58,500 bases of DNA, from assembly GCA_027322505.1 (NCBI GenBank), contig DAHVRJ010000074.1, positions 1 to 58,500 of the forward strand, in the 5' to 3' direction. A model generated the notes under the pieces. It was not told the DNA's origin. It searched no databases and worked only from the letters and a program-made list of their open reading frames with translations. The position numbers and the translations under genes were made by a program. Positions 4,988 to 45,993 of this stretch are shown here, piece after piece. Positions within the stretch are counted from its first letter, which is position 1. Each line of letters begins with the position of its first letter. Source of the DNA: Demequinaceae bacterium (lineage in GTDB: Bacteria; Actinomycetota; Actinomycetes; Actinomycetales; JAJYRW01).

Positions 4988-7285
4988 CTATTTAACGAAA
5001 ACAGTGATCGGTTCGCTGCGAGTTATCCCGTTATCGTTAATAAATTCCGCCACGTACGTATAGTGCCCTGAGGCTCGCTGAGGAACCTGCGTCTGCACGG
5101 TCTGGTGTTGGGGGGTTGCCTCATCGAGAGTAGTTTTTTCGATATAGGCTCCATTTTCCAAAAGCCTAAATTCAGAAGCATTTGTTCCCCACCATAAATT
5201 TGCGGTGATCGTGAAGTCGGATGTGCCACTCCAGTTATCGTGACTTAATACGGGTTGACCGGGGTGAGCATCCGCTACGGTGACGGTCAGCGGATCAGTA
5301 ACCGTTGTGCCCTCAGAATTCGTCAACACAGCCTGGTAGGCGTATTCGCCATTGGGACGATTTTCAAAATCGAAGTCTAATGACTGAGGCAGGGGACCAT
5401 TTGGCGTAAGATCTCTAGTGTCTACAACGGAACCATTTTCCAGCAGTGTGATCTTGCTGGCATTTGCGCCCCAGTTCAAGTCCGCCTTCACTGAATAGTT
5501 TCCATCATGCTGTCCAATTAACCACCCGCTGGTTGAGGTGAGACGCATCTCACCGGGTAGCGCAATTTCCGTATCAGTATCTAGGTCTTGATTATGCAGA
5601 CACTCAACGCGTTCCAACGCTGTGGGCGAGAAGCGGAACCAGTCAAATGAAGCCGCTATTTCGGTGGCCTCGGTATCACCCATAAAAGCGTAAGGTCCGA
5701 TGTGCGTGAATCCTGCATTCTGGACATCAATATCGCGACCATAATTTTCAAACGTCTCACCATCATAGGAAACGCTTGCTTTGATCGTTGAGCCATCATT
5801 TGTTAGACGAAGCCACAGCGTCGTTGCTCCGGCGACTTTTGGAGCACCGGAATCCTGGCGGTTATTGCCATCGCGGTGGTATACGAGTTCAACAGTTGGT
5901 CCAGGTGTTGCTCTCCCCAGATCAAACTTTGCATAGTGACTATCGCTTGCATAAAGCAATAATCCGGCCTGCTGGAACCGCTCAGTTGCATCAATATTGA
6001 CCTTTGTTGTCACTTCCCACGGTTCATCGGGTAATTCTTGTTGAATTAGCGGCGCACCTGCGACACCTGCAGCATACGTCGGGATGTGCAGTGCTCCGTC
6101 ATCTAAGAAGTGGCGCGCGTCTTCCGCCCGGAGGGTGCGATGCCAGACGTCGGTTGACAGCTCAGCAGTGTCAAATTCATCGCTGCCGGAAGCTGAGCAG
6201 TGGGCATTAAGCGGATCCGTGGGATCAGGGGCGAAGATGTTGCCTTCTTGAACGGGTTTAGCGGGAAAACCGTCTTTCGCGAAGGCGATCGTTGCTCCTA
6301 GCCGATCTCCGGCTTCATAAAATAGGTATGTCTGCCCATCATGTGTAACTATCTCGGGCGCAGCAACCCTGCCCGTATCAGCACCAACACCGCTCGAGCT
6401 GTGGAGCAGTAAAGGTTCCTCGCCCACATTTCGCAGTGTTTGATCAATTGTGCGGGCGTATATTGAGCCACTTGAGGCGTGATAGGTGACGTATAAAGTG
6501 CCGTTCCATTCCCATAGGTTGGCGCTGGAAACGTTCTGACCTTCTACCTGCCCGGGTTCAACGACATAGCCAGGCACAACTTCCCAGTTTTCTCCGTCTA
6601 GAGATTCAGCAAGCCGAATCCGCCGGATGTCATCCCGCTCATTGGCCATGTAAAACATGCCGTACTGATAAGGAGAATCCGGATTCGGATGCTCGAACAC
6701 ACGTGCATAACTTGTTTCGGTGACCTCGGCGCCGCTCATGCTGTTTTCTAAGGCTGTTCCGCCATAACTGAAGTGGATGCCATCTGAACTTGTAGCCCAG
6801 CGGGTGTGTGAATTTTCGCCATGGAAATAAAGATAAACTTCTTCTTCGGATTCCATCCAAATCGTCTCTGGTGTGGAGACGTGTGAAACATCGAAATGTG
6901 GCTCCCACTTGCTGGGAATAATAGGGTTATCTTCATACTCGGTCCACGGACCGTCGAGGCTATCTGAATACATTAGTGATATGCCACCGGGGGGATCATG
7001 TGGCGCGTAATATAAGTACCATTCACCCAAAGGATCATCAAGATAATACCCAGCGTGGAAGATGCTTGGAAAAATATATTCATTAGTCGGGTTGAATGAC
7101 ATTGACGATTTGTCAGTGACTATTTCTTGGAATCCAAAATTTGGCCAGCCATCCGGCACCTCTTCGGCCTGCGCATGTGCTTGGGGGACATCGCTTGCCG
7201 TGACGAGGCCGATTGCTAGTAGCAAGGCAAGGAGCATCCGCGCAACAGTACGCGGATTCCTTGTGGCTCCTTGGTCGATCATCAT
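4988..7285 (-). CDS. Secreted multidomain glycoside-hydrolase-like protein (beta-propeller GH43/32/117-like + ConA-like/DUF1349-like + two ChiA_N-like FnIII-type modules)
   Basis: 765 aa. N-terminal signal peptide (RMLLALLLAIGLVTASDVPQAHAQA). The N-terminal 330 aa or so have repeated blade-like segments (WYLYYAPHD, VYLYFHG, YGMFYMAN, LYVTYHA, TYLFYEA). The middle part is a concanavalin-like region. The C-terminus carries two tandem repeats (ADLNWGANASKITLLENGSVV and ANLWWGTNASEFRLLENGAYI) resembling the N-terminal domain of chitinase A. No LPXTG motif. Confidence 0.55.
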   Translation of the reverse strand: MMIDQGATRNPRTVARMLLALLLAIGLVTASDVPQAHAQAEEVPDGWPNFGFQEIVTDKSSMSFNPTNEYIFPSIFHAGYYLDDPLGEWYLYYAPHDPPGGISLMYSDSLDGPWTEYEDNPIIPSKWEPHFDVSHVSTPETIWMESEEEVYLYFHGENSHTRWATSSDGIHFSYGGTALENSMSGAEVTETSYARVFEHPNPDSPYQYGMFYMANERDDIRRIRLAESLDGENWEVVPGYVVEPGQVEGQNVSSANLWEWNGTLYVTYHASSGSIYARTIDQTLRNVGEEPLLLHSSSGVGADTGRVAAPEIVTHDGQTYLFYEAGDRLGATIAFAKDGFPAKPVQEGNIFAPDPTDPLNAHCSASGSDEFDTAELSTDVWHRTLRAEDARHFLDDGALHIPTYAAGVAGAPLIQQELPDEPWEVTTKVNIDATERFQQAGLLLYASDSHYAKFDLGRATPGPTVELVYHRDGNNRQDSGAPKVAGATTLWLRLTNDGSTIKASVSYDGETFENYGRDIDVQNAGFTHIGPYAFMGDTEATEIAASFDWFRFSPTALERVECLHNQDLDTDTEIALPGEMRLTSTSGWLIGQHDGNYSVKADLNWGANASKITLLENGSVVDTRDLTPNGPLPQSLDFDFENRPNGEYAYQAVLTNSEGTTVTDPLTVTVADAHPGQPVLSHDNWSGTSDFTITANLWWGTNASEFRLLENGAYIEKTTLDEATPQHQTVQTQVPQRASGHYTYVAEFINDNGITRSEPITVFVK

Positions 7286-37893: not shown

Positions 37894-39084
37894 ATGCAGC
37901 TTGACTGGATCAAACCCCTCATCGGAATTCCTGGTCCGTTCGCTACCGTCTATTTAGATGCCACACGTGGTGACGAATCGGGTTACCGCGAAGTGATGAA
38001 TCGCTGGCAGGGCTTGAAACGCTCCCTGATTAATCAGCACACGCCCGAAGACGTACTGAACCTACTCGAAGATCGCATTTCTCAAGCCACCCACGCCACG
38101 GGGCAAGTGGGACGCTTTTTGATTGTCGGCCGCGGTGAAGTGCTAGTAGACCGCGTAATGAAGACCCCGCCGCTAAAAGATGAGGCGATTTACGCCGGCG
38201 CCCCGGCATTGCGCGCCGCAGCCGCGGCAACTGATGATCAAGTCAATTACTTTCTAGTTGAGATTAACCGCATGGGGGCGGACGTCAAGACACCCGATCC
38301 CCAAAACCCCTTCGGTCCGCTTGAGATTTACGCCCAAATCGCCGGTGAACACGACGTCGTGCACAAGGTCCGCGGTGGCGGGTTTCACCACGGAAGGCTG
38401 CAAAATCGCGCTCAAGATTCATGGGAACGAAACGCAGACTACATCGCTAACCATCTCGATGAACTCGTCACTACCGACCGGCCCGAACTACTGATTCTCA
38501 GTGGCGATGTGCGAGCTGTCGGACTCGTTGAAGAGCGCCTGGGGGAACCAGCGCGCAAGATCTCCACCCAGCTTCCCGGAGGTGGCCGCAATGAGAGCGG
38601 TGAAGATGCTCATTTCCACCAGCAGTTGGAATCAGCGCTGGATGACTACCGCCAGAAACGGCGGGGCAGCGTGATCGCCCGCTTTGAACAAGAGCTCGGT
38701 AGAGACGAGGCGGCCGTTACGGGCCAAGCGGATGTATTGCAGGCCCTTCAGCGCGGTCAGGTATCAGAACTGCTCCTGCAGGGGGATGGTTCCAGCTCGC
38801 CGGAACCGGAGGCTTCCCTGTGGATCGGCCAGGGGGCGCTAGAGGTAGCTGACTCCGAATCCGAAGTGCGCGAACTTAGTGATACCGCCGAGGAGCTCTC
38901 AGCCGACATCGCACTTTTGCGCGCCGCAGTGGGACAAGATGCCGGGGTCACTTTCGTAAATGACTCCCTCACCCTTCCTGGCGGGGTTGGCGCGCTGCTG
39001 CGCTGGAAAGACGCCGCCACGCCAGATGAAAATGTTCTGTCCTTTAGCGACGATTCCCAGCGCTTGCGCGCCGAGCCGTACTAG
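37894..39084 (+). CDS. eRF1-like / Vms1-like (baeRF-type, Rv2629-like) hypothetical protein
   Basis: 396 aa. N-terminal PFATVYLDATRGDESG and central HKVRGGGFHHGRLQNRAQDSWERNADYIANHL. From memory these resemble the bacterial archaeo-eukaryotic release-factor-like family. Strong SD AGGAGG. Confidence 0.5.
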   Translation: MQLDWIKPLIGIPGPFATVYLDATRGDESGYREVMNRWQGLKRSLINQHTPEDVLNLLEDRISQATHATGQVGRFLIVGRGEVLVDRVMKTPPLKDEAIYAGAPALRAAAAATDDQVNYFLVEINRMGADVKTPDPQNPFGPLEIYAQIAGEHDVVHKVRGGGFHHGRLQNRAQDSWERNADYIANHLDELVTTDRPELLILSGDVRAVGLVEERLGEPARKISTQLPGGGRNESGEDAHFHQQLESALDDYRQKRRGSVIARFEQELGRDEAAVTGQADVLQALQRGQVSELLLQGDGSSSPEPEASLWIGQGALEVADSESEVRELSDTAEELSADIALLRAAVGQDAGVTFVNDSLTLPGGVGALLRWKDAATPDENVLSFSDDSQRLRAEPY

Positions 39085-39146
39085 CCCCCGGCACTTGCGC
39101 GCCCAGCCGTACTAGCCCCCGGCACCTGCGCGCCCAGCCGTATTAG
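39064..39146. repeat. 31-bp tandem repeat, about 2.7 copies, spanning a stop codon
   Basis: TTGCGCGCCGAGCCGTACTAGCCCCCGGCAC, TTGCGCGCCCAGCCGTACTAGCCCCCGGCAC and CTGCGCGCCCAGCCGTATTAG. Copy 1 contains the stop of the 37894-39084 CDS. The last copy abuts the valS stop. Confidence 0.85.
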
Positions 39147-41785
39147 TCTCGGCGCCGCTTTGCCGGAGGCTCTCCCAGTTCGGAAGCGATGATGGCTGGC
39201 TCATCAAAATCGCCTGCGACTAATTGCAGCTCTTCTACGTGCCCGGCGGCCGCCAAGTCCGAAGCGATTGCTTCAATAGCCGAAAGCTGCGCCGCTGGGA
39301 TGGCAAGTTCGGCCCTGATGAGCGGCGTACGCATCGAAACCTTCGCTTCGGACTTCGTCCGGCGCAACTCAGCCAAAGCCGCACCAGCCACCGGCAACAC
39401 GGCCGGGTTACTATTGATGGCAGCGGCGCGCAGTACATCTGAAGTGGGCCAGGGTGCCTTGTGAATGGACCCCACCCGCCACCATGACCACACTTCTTCT
39501 GTGGCGAAGGGCAAAAATGGCGCAAAGAGTCGCAGCAGCACATCGAGTGCAAGAACGAGGGCGGCACGAGCCGACTCCGACTCGGTGCCTTCCGCCCCAT
39601 AGGCCCGATCTTTAACGAGTTCCAAGTAGTCGTCACAAAACGCCCAAAAGAGCGATTCGGTTAGCTCGAGCGCCCGCGTGTGGTCATAACGCTCGAAAGA
39701 CGCGCCCGCCTCATCAACAACATGAGCCAGGGCAGCGAGCATGGTGCGATCCAGCGGGTTCGTCACCAGGGACGGATCGGCAACCTGTTCCGTCGCCCCA
39801 AGCGGCGTAATTTCATCGCCCAAAGCTCGCTGGAGCACAAACTTCGAGGCATTTAAAATCTTGATGGCCAGGCGCCGTCCGATCTTCATCTGGTCTTCTT
39901 CAAAGACCGCATCGGTACCAAGCCGCGCTGAGGCGGCCCAATAGCGCACCGCATCGGAGCCGTGCTGTTTCACCAGCCCCATCGGCGTAATGACGTTCCC
40001 CTTGGACTTCGACATCTTTTTGCGGTCCCGGTCCAGCATCCAGCCGCTAATGGTGGTGTGCTTCCACGGCAGATGACCGTGTTCGAGCTGTGAACGCAAC
40101 AGAGTTGAGAACAACCAGGTGCGAATGATGTCTTGCCCCTGGGGCCGCAAGTCCATTGGGAAAACCCGTTCAAATAGGTCCGGATCAGCGATCCACCCCG
40201 ACACAATTTGCGGTGTGAGCGACGAGGTCGCCCATGTGTCCATAACGTCTGGATCGCCGATGAATCCGCCGGGTTTGCCGCGGTCAGCCTCTGAGAAACC
40301 AGCTGGGCAGTCCACCGAGGGATCAATCGGCAATTGCGACTCGTCGGGAACAAGCGGATCGTCGTACTGCGGATTGCCCGCATCGTCGAGGCGGTACCAC
40401 ACGGGGAAGGGCACACCAAAGAAGCGCTGGCGAGAAACAAGCCAGTCGCCGTTTAAGCCCTCCACCCAGTTCTCATAGCGCACCTTCATAAAGTCGGGGT
40501 GCCAGTCCAGTTCCAAGCCGCGCTCCAGCAACGTTTCGCGCAAACCCGGTGCGCCTTCGGGCCGCCCACTATTGCGGATGTACCACTGGCGCGTGGTGAC
40601 AATCTCCAGCGGGCGATCACCCTTTTCAAAGAATTTCACCGCGTGGGTAATCGCCTCCGGCTCGCCAATCAGATCGCCGGACTCGCGCAGTAATTCGACC
40701 ATTGCCTCCCGGGCAGAAAACACCGTCTTGCCCGCTAATTTTGCATAGGCTTCCTGGGCGGCGGCGTTTTCGAGTCCGGCCGGAGCCTCAGCGATAAACC
40801 GGCCATCCCAGCCCAGTACCGTGCGCGTCGGCAGATCTAATTCGCGCCACCAAATCACGTCAGTGACATCACCGAACGTACAGATCATGGCGATCCCGGT
40901 GCCCTTATCCGGTTCTGCAAGCCGGTGGGCAACAACGGGAACCTCAACGCCGAATACCGGCGAGGTCACAGTTTTACCAAACAGGTCCTGATAGCGCTCA
41001 TCATCGGGATGGGCCACGAGCGCGACGCAGGCGGGCAGCAACTCCGGGCGCGTAGTTTCGATCTCAATTGGCGTATCGCCGGCTGCCTTAAACGTCAACT
41101 TATGGAACGCCCCGGGCCGCTCCCGATCCTCCAACTCGGCCTGGGCAACCGCGGTGCGAAATGTAATGTCCCACATCGTGGGAGCCTGCGCCTGATAGGC
41201 CTCGCCGCGGGCCAAATTGCGCAAAAATGCCTGCTGGGAAACGGCTTGTGCGCGCGCATCAATGGTCTGGTACGTATATGACCAGTCCACGCTCACGCCC
41301 AGACGCCGCCATAGTTCTTCAAATTTCTTTTCGTCTTCTTCTGCTAACTTTTCGCACAGCTCGACGAAGTTACGGCGCGAGACCGGGACCTGATCAGCAG
41401 GCCGGACCGTCTTTTCCCCACTGTGGGGCGGCACAAAATCAGCGTCATAGGGCAGGGAAGGATCACAGCGAATCCCAAAATAATTTTGCACCCGACGCTC
41501 AGTCGGCAGGCCATTGTCATCCCAGCCCATGGGGTAGTACACCGATTTGCCCAGCATGCGCTGGTAGCGGGCAATCACATCGGTGTGCGTATACGAAAAC
41601 ACGTGCCCCACGTGCAGTGAGCCGGAAACCGTGGGCGGGGGAGTGTCAATTGAGTAGATTTGCTCCCGGGTAGCAGTGCGGTCGAAATCATAGGTGCCCT
41701 GCTGGCTCCAGCGGGCGTCCCAAGTTTCTTCCAGACCGTCCAAAGTGGGTTTATTAGGAACAGCACGGGGTTGCAGATCGCTCAT
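39143..41785 (-). CDS. valS: Valine--tRNA ligase
   Basis: 880 aa. HVGH (HIGH) motif in PPPTVSGSLHVGHVFSY, and KMSKSKGN. Confidence 0.95.
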   Translation of the reverse strand: MSDLQPRAVPNKPTLDGLEETWDARWSQQGTYDFDRTATREQIYSIDTPPPTVSGSLHVGHVFSYTHTDVIARYQRMLGKSVYYPMGWDDNGLPTERRVQNYFGIRCDPSLPYDADFVPPHSGEKTVRPADQVPVSRRNFVELCEKLAEEDEKKFEELWRRLGVSVDWSYTYQTIDARAQAVSQQAFLRNLARGEAYQAQAPTMWDITFRTAVAQAELEDRERPGAFHKLTFKAAGDTPIEIETTRPELLPACVALVAHPDDERYQDLFGKTVTSPVFGVEVPVVAHRLAEPDKGTGIAMICTFGDVTDVIWWRELDLPTRTVLGWDGRFIAEAPAGLENAAAQEAYAKLAGKTVFSAREAMVELLRESGDLIGEPEAITHAVKFFEKGDRPLEIVTTRQWYIRNSGRPEGAPGLRETLLERGLELDWHPDFMKVRYENWVEGLNGDWLVSRQRFFGVPFPVWYRLDDAGNPQYDDPLVPDESQLPIDPSVDCPAGFSEADRGKPGGFIGDPDVMDTWATSSLTPQIVSGWIADPDLFERVFPMDLRPQGQDIIRTWLFSTLLRSQLEHGHLPWKHTTISGWMLDRDRKKMSKSKGNVITPMGLVKQHGSDAVRYWAASARLGTDAVFEEDQMKIGRRLAIKILNASKFVLQRALGDEITPLGATEQVADPSLVTNPLDRTMLAALAHVVDEAGASFERYDHTRALELTESLFWAFCDDYLELVKDRAYGAEGTESESARAALVLALDVLLRLFAPFLPFATEEVWSWWRVGSIHKAPWPTSDVLRAAAINSNPAVLPVAGAALAELRRTKSEAKVSMRTPLIRAELAIPAAQLSAIEAIASDLAAAGHVEELQLVAGDFDEPAIIASELGEPPAKRRRD

Positions 41786-41886
41786 GGTTACCTATCTTCC
41801 CAGATGCCACTTAGGCTGATGCGTGATGGTTATCGTTGCGCTAGCGCGCTAACGAGTTTAAAGCGCTCGACGCCCTAGGAGTGTAA

Positions 41887-42666
41887 ATGTCTTTAGGTAC
41901 TGACTTAAACATCACTGGAGAAAAACGCGCGGTCGTTACGGGAGCGTCTTCGGGAATTGGTGCAGCGACCGTGACGCGACTGCGTGCCGCCGATTGGGAT
42001 GTTATCGCTGTTGCCCGCCGCGAGGACCGCCTTAAGGAATTGCAGGAACGCACCGGGGCAGTACCGCTGGCCTGTGACATTACAATTGCGGACGACGTCG
42101 CGCGCCTTAGCGAATTCGTCGCCGAGCGCGGGGTACTTCACGCGCTGGTTAACAACGCGGGCGGTGCCTTCGGTCAAGAACCAGTCGCGGAAGCCGACAT
42201 CGACAAGTGGCAGCAGATGTATGACGTCAACGTGATCGGAACGCTGCGCATCACGCGGGAGTTGTTGCCGCAACTGCGCGCTAGTAACGCTGGTGACGTC
42301 GTCATGGTGACCTCGACCGCTGCCCATGACACCTACCCGGGCGGGGGCGGCTATGTGGCGGCTAAGCACGCCGAGCGAATCATCGCCAACACGCTACGCC
42401 AAGAATTAGTAGGCGAGCCGGTGCGCATTATGGAGGTTGCTCCGGGAATGGTGATGACCGAGGAGTTTTCCCTCACCCGTTTCGCGGGCGATCAACAACG
42501 CGCGGAGGCTGTATATGAGGGAGTAGCCGAGCCGCTTGTCGCGGACGACATTGCCGAAGTGATTGAGTTCATGCTCTCCCGGCCCCATCACGTTAACCTC
42601 GACAGCGTGATTGTCCGTCCCCGCGCTCAGGCGACGAACACGCTTGTTGCCCGCGCCGATTCATAA
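41887..42666 (+). CDS. SDR-family oxidoreductase
   Basis: 259 aa. TGASSGIGAA, NNAG and Y-x3-K (YVAAKHA). Confidence 0.85.
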   Translation: MSLGTDLNITGEKRAVVTGASSGIGAATVTRLRAADWDVIAVARREDRLKELQERTGAVPLACDITIADDVARLSEFVAERGVLHALVNNAGGAFGQEPVAEADIDKWQQMYDVNVIGTLRITRELLPQLRASNAGDVVMVTSTAAHDTYPGGGGYVAAKHAERIIANTLRQELVGEPVRIMEVAPGMVMTEEFSLTRFAGDQQRAEAVYEGVAEPLVADDIAEVIEFMLSRPHHVNLDSVIVRPRAQATNTLVARADS

Positions 42667-42785
42667 ATTGGCTGACGCAAATCCATAAAAGCCACTTGCG
42701 CTAAAAGCTCTACTGTGTCATTATCTTTTTCATGCACATTACAATTTCTATGCTTCGCAACGACCAGGTTTCTGCCTGCGCCGAT

Positions 42786-42827
42786 ATGCGAATGCGAATG
42801 TGCATGATGTGCCGCTCGAACTTCTAA
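42786..42827 (+). CDS. Candidate leader micro-ORF rich in Met/Cys codons (MRMRMCMMCRSNF)
   Basis: ATG CGA ATG CGA ATG TGC ATG ATG TGC CGC TCG AAC TTC TAA. An in-frame ATG at 42750 would give the 25-aa product MLRNDQVSACADMRMRMCMMCRSNF. The stop lies 188 nt upstream of the FMN reductase ATG. No convincing SD was seen. Confidence 0.4.
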   Translation: MRMRMCMMCRSNF

Positions 42828-43015
42828 TAGTTCCCGGCCTCCTCCAGCGCCACCTTGTATTAACAAGTTGACCCCAATGTTTGGCGCAGAGTTTTCTCTC
42901 CCCAGCAGCTAACTGAAGTTCTTTTCAGAATCATCGCTGCGCATTAATGCGACCCCCACCTCAGTAATTTATCCTGCCTTTGAAGTTTATTGAGGCGCAG
43001 ATATAGGGAAGCAAA

Positions 43016-43573
43016 ATGTCATCCATCGTTCTAATTGGGGGATCGCCTTCTCCCACCTCACGCAGTTCAGTCGTCCTGGATCAGGTCGCCACCCAGATCA
43101 AACTCGCAGGATTTGAAGTCGAGCGCATTGAAGTGCGCGATATTGATCCTGCCGCTTTACTGTTCGCTGACTTTGGCCACCCAGACGTGCTAGCTGCCGG
43201 GGAAAAGATTGAGCGTGCATCAGCGGTGGTGCTAGCAACGCCGGTATATAAGGCATCGTATTCGGGGGTGCTCAAATCACTCCTTGATCTGCTTGCACGC
43301 GACGCGTTCCACAATAAACCGATTCTGCCCATTGCGACGGGCGGAACAATCGCGCACCTACTGTCAATTGACTACGCGCTGCGTCCCGTTCTCTATGCAC
43401 TGTGTGCGGAAAAGGTATTAGCGGGCCGATTTATTCTCGATAAAGACGTTTCTACGATTGCTCCCAATGTTGGCATCGAAGATGCAGAAGCGTGGGATGC
43501 GTTGGAGGCTCAAATTGCCACGCTATGCGATGAGGTGACGCATCTCAATCAGCGAGAACTAGCGGCTGTTTAG
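43016..43573 (+). CDS. ssuE: NADPH-dependent FMN reductase (SsuE-like)
   Basis: 185 aa. IVLIGGSPSPTSRSS, ATPVYKASYSGVLKSLLDLL and IATGGTIAHLL. SD AGGGAAG. Confidence 0.7.
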   Translation: MSSIVLIGGSPSPTSRSSVVLDQVATQIKLAGFEVERIEVRDIDPAALLFADFGHPDVLAAGEKIERASAVVLATPVYKASYSGVLKSLLDLLARDAFHNKPILPIATGGTIAHLLSIDYALRPVLYALCAEKVLAGRFILDKDVSTIAPNVGIEDAEAWDALEAQIATLCDEVTHLNQRELAAV

Positions 43574-43668
43574 CCGCTTCTAGGTCCTAATAAATAACAA
43601 CATTGCACGAAGCCCTACTTTTGGGCGCCCAAATAACACTCATTTTGAATTTCAATTAGGGGACACTT

Positions 43669-45105
43669 GTGTCTAAACAAATTCGCGTAAACGGTTTTGA
43701 AATGGCCACACCGGGCCACATTAATCACGGACTGTGGCGGCTGCCGGGGAATCGGCGGGTCGACTACAACAAGTTGGACTATTGGATCGAGCTGGCGCGC
43801 GTGGCCGAGAGGGGACTCTTCGACGCAATTTTCCTAGCAGATGTGGTCGGCACGTACGGGACCTATAAGGGCTCGCGGCGCCCGGCGTTGAAGGCGGGCA
43901 TGCAGGTGCCCAACATCGATCCTAGTTATGTAATTCCGGCGATGGCTGCCGTGACCGAACATCTCGCGTTCGCGGTTACCGGCACGACCACATATGAACC
44001 GCCTTTTGGTTGGGCACGGCGGCTATCGACCCTCGATCATCTGACCAACGGCCGTTTCGCTTGGAACGTCGTAACTGGTTATCTCCCGGATGCTGCTGCA
44101 AACTACGGCTTGAGCGCGCAAATTAAACACGACGATCGCTACGAGATTGCTGACGAATACCTCGAGGTCATTTACCGCTTACTGGAGCTGTCGTGGGACG
44201 AAGACGCCGTTGTTAAGGACGGCGCCAGCCACCTCTATTCTGACCCGGACCGGGTGCATGAAATTGGCTATGAGGGTCGACATTTCAAGGTGGCGGGTCC
44301 TCATCTGTCCGAACCTTCGGTTCAGCGCACTCCGGTTATCTACCAGGCGGGGACTTCCTCGCGCGGCAAGGCGTTTGCTGCCCGCCACGCCGAGGGTGTC
44401 TTCTTACTACCGCGCGATGATCAGCAGGCACAGGAAGAGATTGCCGACCTTCGCCGCCTCGCGGTCGAAGAGGGAAGGCAAGCAGAAGATGTTAAGGCCT
44501 TCCTGGGCGTCGAAATTGTCACCGGGCACAGCACCGATGAGGTTAATGCGAAGGTGCAAGTTCTTGCAGATAACCGCGATATCGAGGGGCATCTCGTGTT
44601 GTTCTCCGGCTGGGCGGGAATTGACCTGTCGGGTGACGACACCGATAAATACCTTGAATACAAAGCCGGCGATGCGATGCAGACATTTGAGCGCATGTGG
44701 TCAGAGGGTGAGGACCGCAAGAAGGTGGGCGAACTTGTCGAGCACCTATCGCATCCAGCAAATGACAAGTTGTTCATTGCTGGAACGCCTGACCAGGTGG
44801 CTGACCGCCTCATAGGTCTGATTGACGGAACCGACGCTGATGGAATCAATCTCGTCCAGCACCTATCCCCGGGCACCTTTGAAGACTTCTCGAATCTCGT
44901 TGTGCCCGAACTGCAGCGCCGCGGCCGCTACCGCACCGCCTACACCCCGGGCGAAACGCTCCGGGAACGCTTGCACGGCTCCGGAGCACGTCCGCTTCCC
45001 GGTCACCCAGCTGCTGCTTATGCGCAGGAGCGTGAGCTGCGCCAGGCGCAGCGTGGAACAAACGGTCAAGTAACCAACCCAAACAGTGAATTCGCATCGG
45101 TTTAA
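43669..45105 (+). CDS. LLM-class flavin-dependent monooxygenase, NtaA/SnaA/DszA(SoxA) family
   Basis: 478 aa. FEMATPGHINHGLWRLPGN, AIFLADVVG, LDHLTNGRFAWNVVTGY and IYQAGTSSRGKAFAARHAEGVF. GTG start. Confidence 0.8.
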   Translation: MSKQIRVNGFEMATPGHINHGLWRLPGNRRVDYNKLDYWIELARVAERGLFDAIFLADVVGTYGTYKGSRRPALKAGMQVPNIDPSYVIPAMAAVTEHLAFAVTGTTTYEPPFGWARRLSTLDHLTNGRFAWNVVTGYLPDAAANYGLSAQIKHDDRYEIADEYLEVIYRLLELSWDEDAVVKDGASHLYSDPDRVHEIGYEGRHFKVAGPHLSEPSVQRTPVIYQAGTSSRGKAFAARHAEGVFLLPRDDQQAQEEIADLRRLAVEEGRQAEDVKAFLGVEIVTGHSTDEVNAKVQVLADNRDIEGHLVLFSGWAGIDLSGDDTDKYLEYKAGDAMQTFERMWSEGEDRKKVGELVEHLSHPANDKLFIAGTPDQVADRLIGLIDGTDADGINLVQHLSPGTFEDFSNLVVPELQRRGRYRTAYTPGETLRERLHGSGARPLPGHPAAAYAQERELRQAQRGTNGQVTNPNSEFASV

Positions 45106-45115
45106 GGAGTAAGAA

Positions 45116-45583
45116 ATGACTGCAACATTTACCGAAGCTCAACCCCAGATTGTTACCTTCAACACCGTCGGTACCTATCGCGGGAATCTGCGTACTGACG
45201 TGGCAGCACGCCAATTTCAAGTTGGAGTAGCTGAACCCGAAGAACTGGGCGGCGACGACTCCGCCCCCAACCCGATGGAGTTACTCCTGGCGGGCCTCGA
45301 TGGCTGCCTGGCTGTTGTAGCGGACGTGGTTGCAGCTGAGTATGACGCGAAGATCAAGTCGCTCTCGTTAACTACGGACGCTGACCTCGACGCACGCGGG
45401 TTCCTGGGCACGGCAGACATCAACCCTTATTTCCAGGCAGTGCGCACGAACGTGGAGATCGACATTGATTTGCCGCGTGAACAGTTCGTGGAGTACACCG
45501 AAACCGTATTGCGCCGCTGCCCAGCAGCCACGCTCATCTTGGCCGCTAAAGTGCAATTTGAGATCGCCTGGAGGCAGATTTGA
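45116..45583 (+). CDS. OsmC-family protein
   Basis: 155 aa. GGDDSAPNPMELLLAGLDGCLA and C-terminal RRCPAA are typical of the OsmC/Ohr fold. Confidence 0.7.
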   Translation: MTATFTEAQPQIVTFNTVGTYRGNLRTDVAARQFQVGVAEPEELGGDDSAPNPMELLLAGLDGCLAVVADVVAAEYDAKIKSLSLTTDADLDARGFLGTADINPYFQAVRTNVEIDIDLPREQFVEYTETVLRRCPAATLILAAKVQFEIAWRQI

Positions 45584-45786
45584 ACGTGCTTAGCGTGTGA
45601 GCTTAGGAGCGCCTAGCGCATCGGAACCCACACACTAATCAAAGCCGGTCTCGCTAAGGCATCCACAGGGCGAAGAATGATGGGGAAAGGGTTCTGACGT
45701 GGACGCGTTCTGGTTAATTGCCGCAACAGGGTTAAACTAGTCCCGGCACTGACCCGGCAATCACCGGCGAGCCATCCAGAAGAACG

Positions 45787-45993
45787 AGAGCGGCGTCGTC
45801 CAAAATCAACGAGCTCGCTCTTAAGTAGAACTGGACGGTTGGGCCCGAGAAAGTCCTTTTAAGCGGTTCGCGCGCCGAGACCGGCACGCAACAAGCGGGG
45901 TGGTACCGCGGCAATCCGCCACCAGGCGGGCTGTCGTCCTCGCGGCAAGCACGGCTTGGCGGCCGGCATACCAGCCAAGCCTAATCCGCAGGA
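45787..45993 (+). promoter_or_regulatory. T-box leader (tRNA-Ile sensing) of ileS
   Basis: The conserved T-box sequence GCGGGGTGGTACCGCGG lies at 45895-45911, with UGGU to pair with the ACCA end. A short stem I candidate spans 45787-45821 with a 9-nt loop CCAAAAUCA, placing AUC (Ile) at 45805-45807 followed by A. An 8-bp hairpin GGCTTGGC/GCCAAGCC lies just upstream of SD GCAGGAG. ACCACCC at 46000-46006, beside the ATG, is complementary to GGGTGGT in the T-box. Confidence 0.75.

Follow-up and report, generated by a model that had tools for sequence, protein, structure and literature searches.

A conserved Met/Cys-rich small open reading frame and a structured leader upstream of an ssuE/LLM-monooxygenase/osmC operon from a Demequinaceae bacterium

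The operon leader and its small open reading frame

The 58,500-nt stretch of DNA analyzed here (contig DAHVRJ010000074.1 of a Demequinaceae bacterium, assembly GCA_027322505.1; referred to as the window) carries an operon for an SsuE-type FMN reductase, an NtaA/DmoA-family LLM monooxygenase, and an OsmC-like protein, preceded by a gap of 349 nt (42667-43015) that contains a small open reading frame (sORF) rich in Met and Cys codons. By sequence comparison, this sORF is a conserved, unannotated, putative leader-peptide gene with a candidate Met/Cys sensor, and it is followed by an apparently new structured leader RNA (Table 1). In an earlier note on the window, a micro-ORF was described at 42786-42827 of the plus strand: ATG CGA ATG CGA ATG TGC ATG ATG TGC CGC TCG AAC TTC TAA. 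Its letters and coordinates agreed with the sequence, as did the count of seven Met or Cys codons among the nine opening codons, the length of the gap, the 188 nt between the stop codon and the ssuE ATG (43016), and the positions given for GGCGCAG (42883 and 42994), CTGCGC (42937), the palindrome CGCATTAATGCG (42940), and AGGGAAG (43005). AATGCG, said to occur twice within the micro-ORF, was found there once (42791); it is ATGCGA that has two copies (42786 and 42792), plus a third at 42947.

The Met/Cys run is far beyond chance. When all stop-free segments of nine residues in the six frames of the whole window were counted (~90,000), this run was the only one with seven Met/Cys, and most of the next-richest segments (six Met/Cys in three segments, and five in another five) overlapped the same ORF. 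In 20 shuffles of the whole window, the maximum was five or less in 19 and six in one. Met and Cys together account for 32% of the sORF, 1.1% (internal) of SsuE, 0.84% (internal) of the LLM monooxygenase, and 1.8% on average in the window. Sulfur amino acids are scarce in the genes of the window in general (Met, 1.4%; Cys, 0.4%; 30 long ORFs with 14,853 codons): internal Met is absent from SsuE, and Cys from the 478-aa monooxygenase.

Comparison with relatives placed the conserved start of the ORF 54 nt upstream of 42786, at ATG 42732. The ATG at 42750, which had been suggested as a possible upstream start, is indeed in frame, but is not conserved; in all seven lineages of the group of leaders closest to the window (referred to as the window clade), an ATGCAY start precedes the ATGCGA core by exactly 54 nt with no indels. 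The resulting peptide has Cys at codons 16, 24, and 27, none of them adjacent. No Shine-Dalgarno (SD) sequence was found ahead of ATG 42732 in the window, nor in the aligned leaders of the window clade. The ATG sits 7 nt past the extended -10 box of a candidate sigma-70-type promoter; this candidate scored under the threshold of a generic scan, and its layout (TTGC(G/A)N, 17 nt, TGN-CA(T/C)(T/G)AT, 6-8 nt, ATGCAY) was kept in seven of the seven full-length window-clade leaders. A conserved promoter 6-8 nt before the ATG and the missing SD fit a leaderless mRNA; since such mRNAs are common in Actinobacteria, the actinobacterial host was also counted for this reading. The sORF is thus probably leaderless. 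An antisense ORF (42627-42866) was not kept open in the relatives.

Table 1. Coordinates of the sORF, the predicted leader elements, and the operon genes in the window.
Feature	Position	Strand	Details and basis
Candidate sigma-70-type promoter	42696-42724	+	-35 TTGCGC 42696-42701, 17-nt spacer, TGT-extended -10 CATTAT 42719-42724; alignment
Leader-peptide sORF (putative)	42732-42827	+	31 codons + TAA (stop 42825-42827), peptide MHITISMLRNDQVSACADMRMRMCMMCRSNF; homologous sORFs in 13 distinct leaders
Predicted 5'-terminal hairpin in sORF	42732-42805	+	RNAalifold, RNAfold; AUGCACAUU (42732-42740) pairs AAUGUGCAU (42797-42805); inner pairs UUCGCA 42754-42759 with UGCGAA 42787-42792; apical stem 42765-42769 with 42774-42778
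Candidate sensor run M R M R M C M M C	42786-42812	+	ATG CGA ATG CGA ATG TGC ATG ATG TGC; Met/Cys outlier unique in window
Predicted hairpin P0	42818-42833	+	GAACU/AGUUC; RNAfold; sORF stop codon in loop
Predicted domain Pa/P1	42842-42891	+	Covariance model R1; Pa outer CUC 42842-42844/GAG 42889-42891, Pa inner GCGCCA 42847-42852/UGGCGC 42882-42887, P1 CUUGU 42854-42858/ACAAG 42863-42867; encloses conserved box 1, UUGACCCCAA (42868-42877)
Predicted P2, C run, Pb, P3	42888-42940	+	P2 AGAG 42888-42891/CUCU 42896-42899; C run 42900-42903; Pb GCAGC 42905-42909/GCUGC 42936-42940; P3 42913-42918/42923-42928; per-sequence folds
Box 2	42946-42958	+	AAUGCGACCCCCA; candidate anti-SD; most conserved downstream element
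Predicted hairpin P4	42959-43000	+	CCUCAGUAA 42959-42967/UUAUUGAGG 42987-42995, plus G(G/U)CGCA 42994-42999; per-sequence folds and inspection
SD and ssuE start	43005-43018	+	AGGGAAG 43005-43011, ATG 43016; AGGG(G)AA conserved
SsuE-type FMN reductase	43016-43573	+	Pfam; NCBIfam TIGR03567 (SsuE, equivalog), 195 bits vs cutoff 164
NtaA/DmoA-family FMNH2-dependent monooxygenase (LLM, 478 aa)	43669-45105	+	Pfam; TIGR03860, 472 vs 280 bits
OsmC-like protein	45116-45583	+	Pfam

Conservation of the sORF in related loci

Seventeen syntenic loci were fetched via the SsuE protein and four more via an alignment scan; all of the ssuE loci compared are metagenomic, and no close relative of SsuE was found in species genomes by a protein scan of genome contigs. 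An in-frame Met/Cys-rich sORF was present upstream in nine of the nine nearest SsuE clusters (94-60% identity) and in four further ones (49-54%), which gives 13 distinct leaders in three clades whose sORF alternates Met/Cys (and Arg) codons; the lowest SsuE identity among them is 49%. Among 76 further ssuE loci (39-53% identity, many phyla), none had at least five Met/Cys per nine residues within 500 nt upstream. Other Met/Cys-rich segments in the 415 kb of loci were off-frame readings of ABC ATPase and SsuC genes, and were rejected. The ssuE/LLM/osmC gene order was retained in L001-L017.

The window clade comprises seven independent lineages, in which SsuE is 94-66% identical and the leader 48-84% identical overall with many indels. 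The sORF itself is free of indels, although the leader downstream is rich in them, and a 20-bp block (ATGCGAATGCGAATGTGCAT) is invariant across the clade. The invariant residues of the peptide are M1, H2, R9, Q12, V13, A15, C16, and M19-R-M-R-M-C24, with the clade-wide run MRMRMC(M/I); synonymous changes occur at H2, V13, C16, and R28 (Cys16 is TGT in L005 and TGC elsewhere). The other residues vary, as does the peptide length (28 or 31 residues).

More distant leaders carry other versions of the same run. L013 and L017, whose SsuE is ~60% identical and whose upstream genes differ, have the sORFs MHFPHATIARPNTCMCMCMCGM... (run CMCMCMCGM) and ...NVLACMCMCRM... (run CMCMCRM), respectively. In L190, L192, L193, and L194 (SsuE 49-54% identical; LemA/DUF2207 upstream and two LLM genes downstream), the sORFs contain ...GMAMCRCMCPAQG..., ...RSAMCMCMPPAR..., ...VTMCICMCPAQG..., and ...RSAMCMCMQPAR..., respectively, with runs including MCRCMC, MCMCM, and MCICMC; Cys is encoded by TGT there, unlike the TGC of the window clade. 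Between L192 and L194, 2, 2, and 9 sites of codon positions 1, 2, and 3, respectively, are changed (six synonymous and five non-synonymous codon changes over 24 codons), a pattern that points clearly to coding selection on the sORF in this subgroup, and in L194, AAGGAG lies 8 nt ahead of the sORF ATG. The sORF was thus retained across changes of flanking genes, Cys codon (TGC/TGT), and expression platform, and it appears from these comparisons that codon identity, not one nucleotide sequence, is what conservation keeps. The expectation in the earlier note that the small ORF would be conserved with its operon was borne out down to 49% SsuE identity, and the accompanying synonymous drift was clear in L192/L194, whereas changes in the window clade showed no third-position bias.

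L190-L194 also share an AT-rich box of ~30 nt, (C)TATTCTTTACTAAATT(A/G)ATCAACAAT (about 2600-2640 in L190), which abuts the TTGAC(C/G) -35 element of the sORF promoter. This box is likely a transcription-factor site, in which case the operons of L190-L194 may combine factor control with attenuation.

A similar motif was found in front of methionine-import genes. A motif scan of genomes with ATGCGNATGCGNATGTGYAT returned 92 loci, ~90 of which were chance matches or microsatellites and were discarded; only the metNIQ leaders of two Nonomuraea species were kept (L028, about 2010-2060 on the plus strand; L076, reverse strand). Their sORF, (V)NEMRMRMCMGCQAR-stop, ends in ...MRMRMCMGCQAR-stop and terminates ~160 nt upstream of the GTG start of metN in metN-metI-metQ, in a C-rich and terminator-less leader that contains GCGTCCCCCAACGC and has GGGGAAA as its SD. 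This sORF is probably a homologue of metL, a leaderless sORF of 29 codons, MSTTSDRTPATEATTTPGARCMCRRMCAF-stop (ending ...GARCMCRRMCAF-stop), located upstream of metNIQ in Streptomyces lividans TK24 (Droste et al. 2021, PMC8079986, Table 4).

Terminators and RNA structure of the leader

A gapped-stem terminator scan found one strong hairpin with a U-run between the sORF and ssuE in six of the six distant leaders, and no intrinsic terminator in any of the eight window-clade leaders. None was found in the window by a generic scan either; this generic scan missed the true terminators of L013 and L194, and the gapped-stem scan alone was informative. Since only ~45 nt follow the terminator before ssuE in L013 and L017, ssuE would be reached there by read-through, i.e., classical attenuation. 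Candidate antiterminator pairings were found in L017 and L193, in which 3' segments of the sORF are complementary to the terminator arms. In the eight window-clade leaders, the place of the terminator is taken by the structured leader (188 nt), which is C-rich and G-poor (C/G ratio of 1.4-1.6 in all members).

The window leader was predicted by RNAfold to be stably folded (-86.4 kcal/mol, z = -3.65). The best-supported part is the Pa/P1 domain: covariance model R1 matched every window-clade leader and no other clade, 83% of the cells in its alignment were paired versus 41-48% when the partners were slid, and ten of 16 pairs were changed on both sides, which none of 500 shuffles reached. Covariation support for Pa/P1 in the alignment is therefore strong. 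From the MAFFT alignments, RNAalifold retrieved no helices other than Pa and the 5' hairpin; the P2, Pb, and P3 helices recurred in six main-clade leaders in per-sequence folds and on inspection, with P3 differing in sequence by subclade (CUGAA/UUCAG vs AAGC/GCUU) and Pb varying only via G-U wobbles. P0 encloses the sORF stop, and hairpins of other sequence were seen by eye to overlap this stop in L001, L005, L012, and L009.

The segment CGACCCCCA of box 2 was invariant in all eight leaders. When the leaders of the window, L111, and L016 were folded, CCC of box 2 paired with GGG of the SD, and UGC with GCA after the SD; L006 has UAC/GUA instead, a single compensatory change in this pairing. 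UGCG of box 2 (42948-42951) can also pair with G(G/U)CGCA (42994-42999), an alternative to SD pairing, and the corresponding UGCGA(C)/(G)UCGCA pairing is perfect in L001, L005, and L012. Furthermore, box 2 is a partial direct repeat of the sensor region of the sORF: the segment CTGCGCCGATATGCGA (42776-42791) recurs 161 nt downstream as CTGCGCATTAATGCGA (42937-42952), just before CCCCCA, and this second copy resembles a decoy of the sensor region. The two copies share a C-to-T change in L005 (CTGTG).

These structures are not those proposed in the earlier note. The alternative helices between GGCGCAG and CTGCGC were not conserved in the relatives; the GGCGCAG copy at 42883 forms the 3' strand of Pa, and pairs with GCGCC(A) (42847-42852) with compensatory changes. 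The palindrome at 42940 and the second GGCGCAG were found only in the closest subclade of the window, and GGCGCAG is an ordinary 7-mer (27 copies in the window vs 18.7 +/- 4.3 expected). Of the folding and covariation check that the note had proposed, what came out was support for Pa/P1.

The leader belongs to no known riboswitch or cis-regulatory family (SAM classes, T-box, and others) in Rfam, which at gathering scores returned three tRNAs only in the whole window. When Rfam 15 was searched with E values up to 10 in 41500-44000, the leader was matched only by potC (28.7 bits; gathering score, 44) on the minus strand, which is the 5' hairpin read backwards, and the other match was snoZ206 (E 0.4) inside the upstream SDR gene.

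The idea that stalling on the Met/Cys codons exposes the SD was modeled in seven sequences by partition-function folding with a 30-nt ribosome footprint at several codons (19-25 and the stop). No consistent opening was found in these constrained folds: the SD was 16-50% unpaired in all modeled states, and RNAduplex found no conserved long-range partner for the freed 5' strand or the Met/Cys tract.

Proposed mechanism, alternatives, and known systems

The 349-nt gap would consist of a promoter and a 281-nt 5' leader of the ssuE/LLM-monooxygenase/osmC mRNA, and we favor, with moderate confidence, a ribosome-mediated attenuator sensing Met and Cys in this leader. In the mechanism that we infer, transcription probably starts at or beside the A of ATG 42732, and the 31-codon leader peptide would be the first product, in which Cys16 and codons 19-27 (M R M R M C M M C) would serve as the sensor. 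A shortage of Met-tRNA or Cys-tRNA would make the ribosome pause at the sensor; with an ample supply of both, it would reach the stop codon and leave. The position of the ribosome would set the expression of the operon, which may yield sulfite from organosulfur compounds by proteins that are themselves sulfur-poor; induction on Met/Cys shortage is proposed because of this gene function and the sulfur-poor SsuE and LLM proteins. In the distant relatives (L013, L017, and L190-L194), the read-out would be the intrinsic terminator just past the sORF. In the window clade, this terminator would be replaced by the C-rich, G-poor leader with P0, Pa/P1 and box 1, P2, Pb/P3, box 2, and P4, and the output is probably control of translation initiation by box 2 masking the SD AGGGAAG, of which a kinetic version is favored; alternatives for this clade would be that Rho terminates transcription within the leader, or that the stalled ribosome protects the mRNA. 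The core idea of the earlier note, a sulfur-sensing leader peptide, is upheld by comparison (the Met/Cys sORF is kept in all relatives), while its start codon and its RNA switch are replaced.

Several findings weigh against this attenuator. The invariant block, including both CGA codons, is also the 3' strand of the predicted 5' hairpin, so that its conservation could be structural, and the leaderless start codon would be hidden within this hairpin. Since the pairs of the hairpin are invariant, they offer no covariation test, and structural and coding constraint are inseparable here; variable sites in the window clade are spread evenly over the three codon positions (12/10/13) without third-position bias. 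In the models, a parked ribosome released nothing but P0 and the 5' strand of the 5' hairpin, with no change in Pa/P1, box 2, or the SD. Pairing between box 2 and the SD is based on invariant bases plus the one compensatory change in L006. Equilibrium folds of the terminator-bearing relatives mostly retained the terminator, from which kinetics cannot be judged, and L190-L194 have 110-130 nt of AT-rich sequence past the terminator, in which ssuE could have its own promoter. The Nonomuraea case, finally, was drawn from a pattern scan in which ~90 of the 92 matches were due to chance.

The main rival is an RNA-only element, in which the 5' stem-loop and the structured leader act as a riboswitch-like, protein-binding, or stabilizing RNA. 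In this reading, which we consider unlikely, the ORF and its Met/Cys codons would be by-products of the self-complementary segments AUGCACAU...AUGUGCAU and UUCGCA...UGCGAA. It would account for the coincidence of the invariant nucleotides with the predicted hairpin strands, for the absence of third-position bias in the window clade, and for the use of the minor codon CGA (10% of the Arg codons in the window) for both Arg residues of the sensor in all window-clade lineages; the real covariation in the leader, the two invariant C-rich boxes, the downstream repeat of an sORF segment, and the folding models without a ribosome-dependent switch are also in line with it. On the other hand, the distant relatives keep the in-frame Met/Cys, the start, and the stop, while the nucleotides, the Cys codon, and the downstream RNA differ, and model R1 is missing from these clades although the sORF is kept there. 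An RNA-only element is also at odds with the coding signature of L192/L194, the SD of L194, and the absence of any indel from the 54-nt loop region of the predicted hairpin, and Rfam provided no family other than the sub-threshold potC match on the wrong strand.

The remaining rivals are less likely than the RNA-only element. A stand-alone small protein, i.e., a trans-acting Met/Cys-rich peptide of 28-36 residues that is metal- or redox-active or a partner of the monooxygenase, is decidedly improbable. The sORF is conserved and probably translated, was called by gene callers in L001 and L013, and retains Cys16 and His2; in L190-L194, it has its own promoter, and L194 additionally has an SD, a terminator, and space for another promoter. 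However, sequence and length drift freely outside the Met/Cys run, a phmmer search of the 31-aa peptide against 1.84 billion protein representatives returned one relative only, and the same motif precedes the unrelated metNIQ. In L013 and L017, moreover, the short distance from the terminator requires read-through for ssuE.

A DNA operator, in which the tandem ATGCGA ATGCGA ATGTGC and the inverted repeat TCATGCACATT/AATGTGCATGA bind a sulfur-responsive factor past the promoter, would agree with the usual control of ssu operons by transcription factors: CysB/Cbl in Escherichia coli and SsuR/CysR in Corynebacterium. The ends of the 5' hairpin do form a perfect 11-nt inverted repeat around +1 and +66, and the 20-bp block is invariant. 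Nevertheless, the arms lie 56 bp apart, the block is located at +55 to +74 inside a frame-preserving ORF, and the distant clades keep the amino-acid composition and lose the DNA motif; Pfam found no regulator gene adjacent to the operon in the window. These points make an operator very improbable. Hardly credible is the precursor of a peptide that is made on ribosomes and modified after translation (RiPP), with a Cys/Met-rich core modified by the flavin monooxygenase system: a short Cys-rich peptide does lie directly ahead of a flavin reductase and an LLM monooxygenase, but recognizable maturation, protease, export, and immunity genes and a conserved leader/core organization are absent, the first gene is an SsuE equivalog, the motif recurs before metNIQ, and in the relatives, terminators separate the sORF from the enzymes.

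An extension of the attenuator to a composite two-input switch, with a self-hiding leaderless sORF and a new structured RNA that binds a sulfur metabolite or protein, is a tentative and rather improbable proposal. The sensor codons may pair with the 5' start codon, allowing approximately one co-transcriptional round of sensing per transcript, and the new RNA may consist of Pa/P1, the two invariant GACCCC boxes, and the decoy CUGCGC-N-AUGCGA in place of the ancestral terminator. In a wider form of this improbable proposal, Met/Cys/Arg-alternating leader peptides before ssuE-LLM (organosulfur scavenging) and metNIQ (methionine import) could form a sulfur 'ribulon' in Actinobacteria and beyond.

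Turning back to the favored attenuator, the closest known system is the group of polycysteine leaderless sORFs in mycobacteria (Ms5788A/Rv0815A, Rv2334A, and others), for which Cys-responsive translational attenuation was proved by start-codon, frameshift, and compensatory mutants (Canestrari et al. 2020, bioRxiv 10.1101/834739). Like them, the sORF of the window is an unannotated and probably leaderless first cistron of ~30 codons from an actinobacterium, with its sensor codons near the 3' end, a terminator-less leader (~100-190 nt), sulfur or cysteine genes downstream, and the ribosome as the proposed sensor. It differs in that Met and Cys (along with Arg in many leaders) alternate in all clades, whereas the polycysteine sORFs of Canestrari et al. 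have at least two consecutive Cys codons. Furthermore, the Cys tract of Ms5788A pairs with the SD region of the next gene, whereas that of the window is predicted to pair with the 5' end of its own mRNA including the sORF start; no conserved duplex between the sensor tract and the SD was found by RNAduplex. The sORF of L194 is led by an SD, unlike the leaderless mycobacterial sORFs. The target in the window is an ssuE/NtaA-DmoA operon recognized from its sequence, whereas the mycobacterial attenuators were demonstrated experimentally.

The metL sORF of S. lividans was annotated from transcription start data only and interpreted as Met-dependent; hairpins, but no typical Rho-independent terminator, lie downstream of it (PMC8079986). 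Its C-terminus (...RCMCRRMCAF-stop) has the same Met/Cys/Arg make-up as that of the window sORF (...MRMRMCMMCRSNF-stop), down to the final F, and the Nonomuraea metNIQ sORF (MRMRMCMGCQAR-stop) links the two at the sequence level. They are also alike in being leaderless (probably so in the window), in having no terminator, and in preceding genes for the acquisition of sulfur amino acids: methionine import (metNIQ) in the former and, differently, organosulfur oxidation (SsuE, NtaA/DmoA LLM, and OsmC) in the latter. Pa/P1 and the C-rich boxes are known from the window clade alone, not from metL.

A short ORF with a run of codons for the regulated amino acids is a feature shared with trpL, hisL, leuL, ilvL, and the cysS uORFC-8-2 motif of Rhodobacterales (PMC8632094). 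L013, L017, and L190-L194 have the full anatomy of a classical attenuator including the intrinsic terminator, which the window clade does not; compared with the classical cases, two amino acids would be sensed via alternating codons, and the targets are catabolic or scavenging genes, not biosynthesis or a tRNA synthetase. The long untranslated leader with C>G and no intrinsic terminator resembles those of tnaC, mgtL, and the ermC leader, which act through Rho or mRNA stability, and by analogy, stalling close to the 5' end could let the ribosome obstruct Rho or a 5'-to-3' exonuclease. Unlike these, the window leader has no Rho-utilization (rut) site abutting the stall site, and no conserved arrest-peptide motif is known here. 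Leader peptides with Cys runs were predicted earlier (Seliverstov 2005, PMC1262725; cysS uORF, PMC8632094); in the literature searched, no leader peptide or sORF was found before ssuE or sulfonate monooxygenase genes, an absence that is not proof.

If the attenuator holds, operons for sulfonate/sulfone-type monooxygenases, textbook cases of factor control (CysB/Cbl, SsuR, and CysR), would here apparently be governed by the ribosome. The cysteine 'ribulon' of mycobacteria would be widened to a mixed Met and Cys sensor, to organosulfur scavenging, and to uncultured lineages. The homologous sensor with two read-outs (a terminator, and a structured terminator-less leader) offers a natural series for the exchange of expression platforms. 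Since such sORFs are almost never annotated, a search for Met/Cys/Arg runs could reveal many hidden sulfur-responsive regulators; the gains at this locus are one well-supported unannotated gene and one new conserved RNA domain, both as judged by comparison.

With regard to the surroundings, the operon in the subclade of L009 is extended by a DszC/SfnB-like gene of the acyl-CoA-dehydrogenase family (5757-6558, plus strand), a sulfur-acquisition oxidoreductase, which strengthens the organosulfur assignment of the operon. Upstream, its neighbors in the window are an SDR gene in the same orientation and, in the opposite one, a ValRS-like gene (39143-41785), the latter adjoined by a gene for a 396-aa protein with baeRF_family2/acVLRF1 (release-factor-like) domains (37894-39084, plus strand). 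The closest matches of the neighboring IleRS are those of Cellulomonas and Actinotalea (70-73% identity), from which the host is taken to be an uncultured actinobacterium of Micrococcales type. The 410-nt gap ahead of ileS is occupied by a full-length, but sub-threshold T-box match (45740-45944, plus strand; 24.6 bits against a gathering score of 93, E 0.0016) containing GGTGGTACCGCG; this match fits the atypical, translation-regulating ileS T-boxes known in Actinobacteria (PMC1262725).

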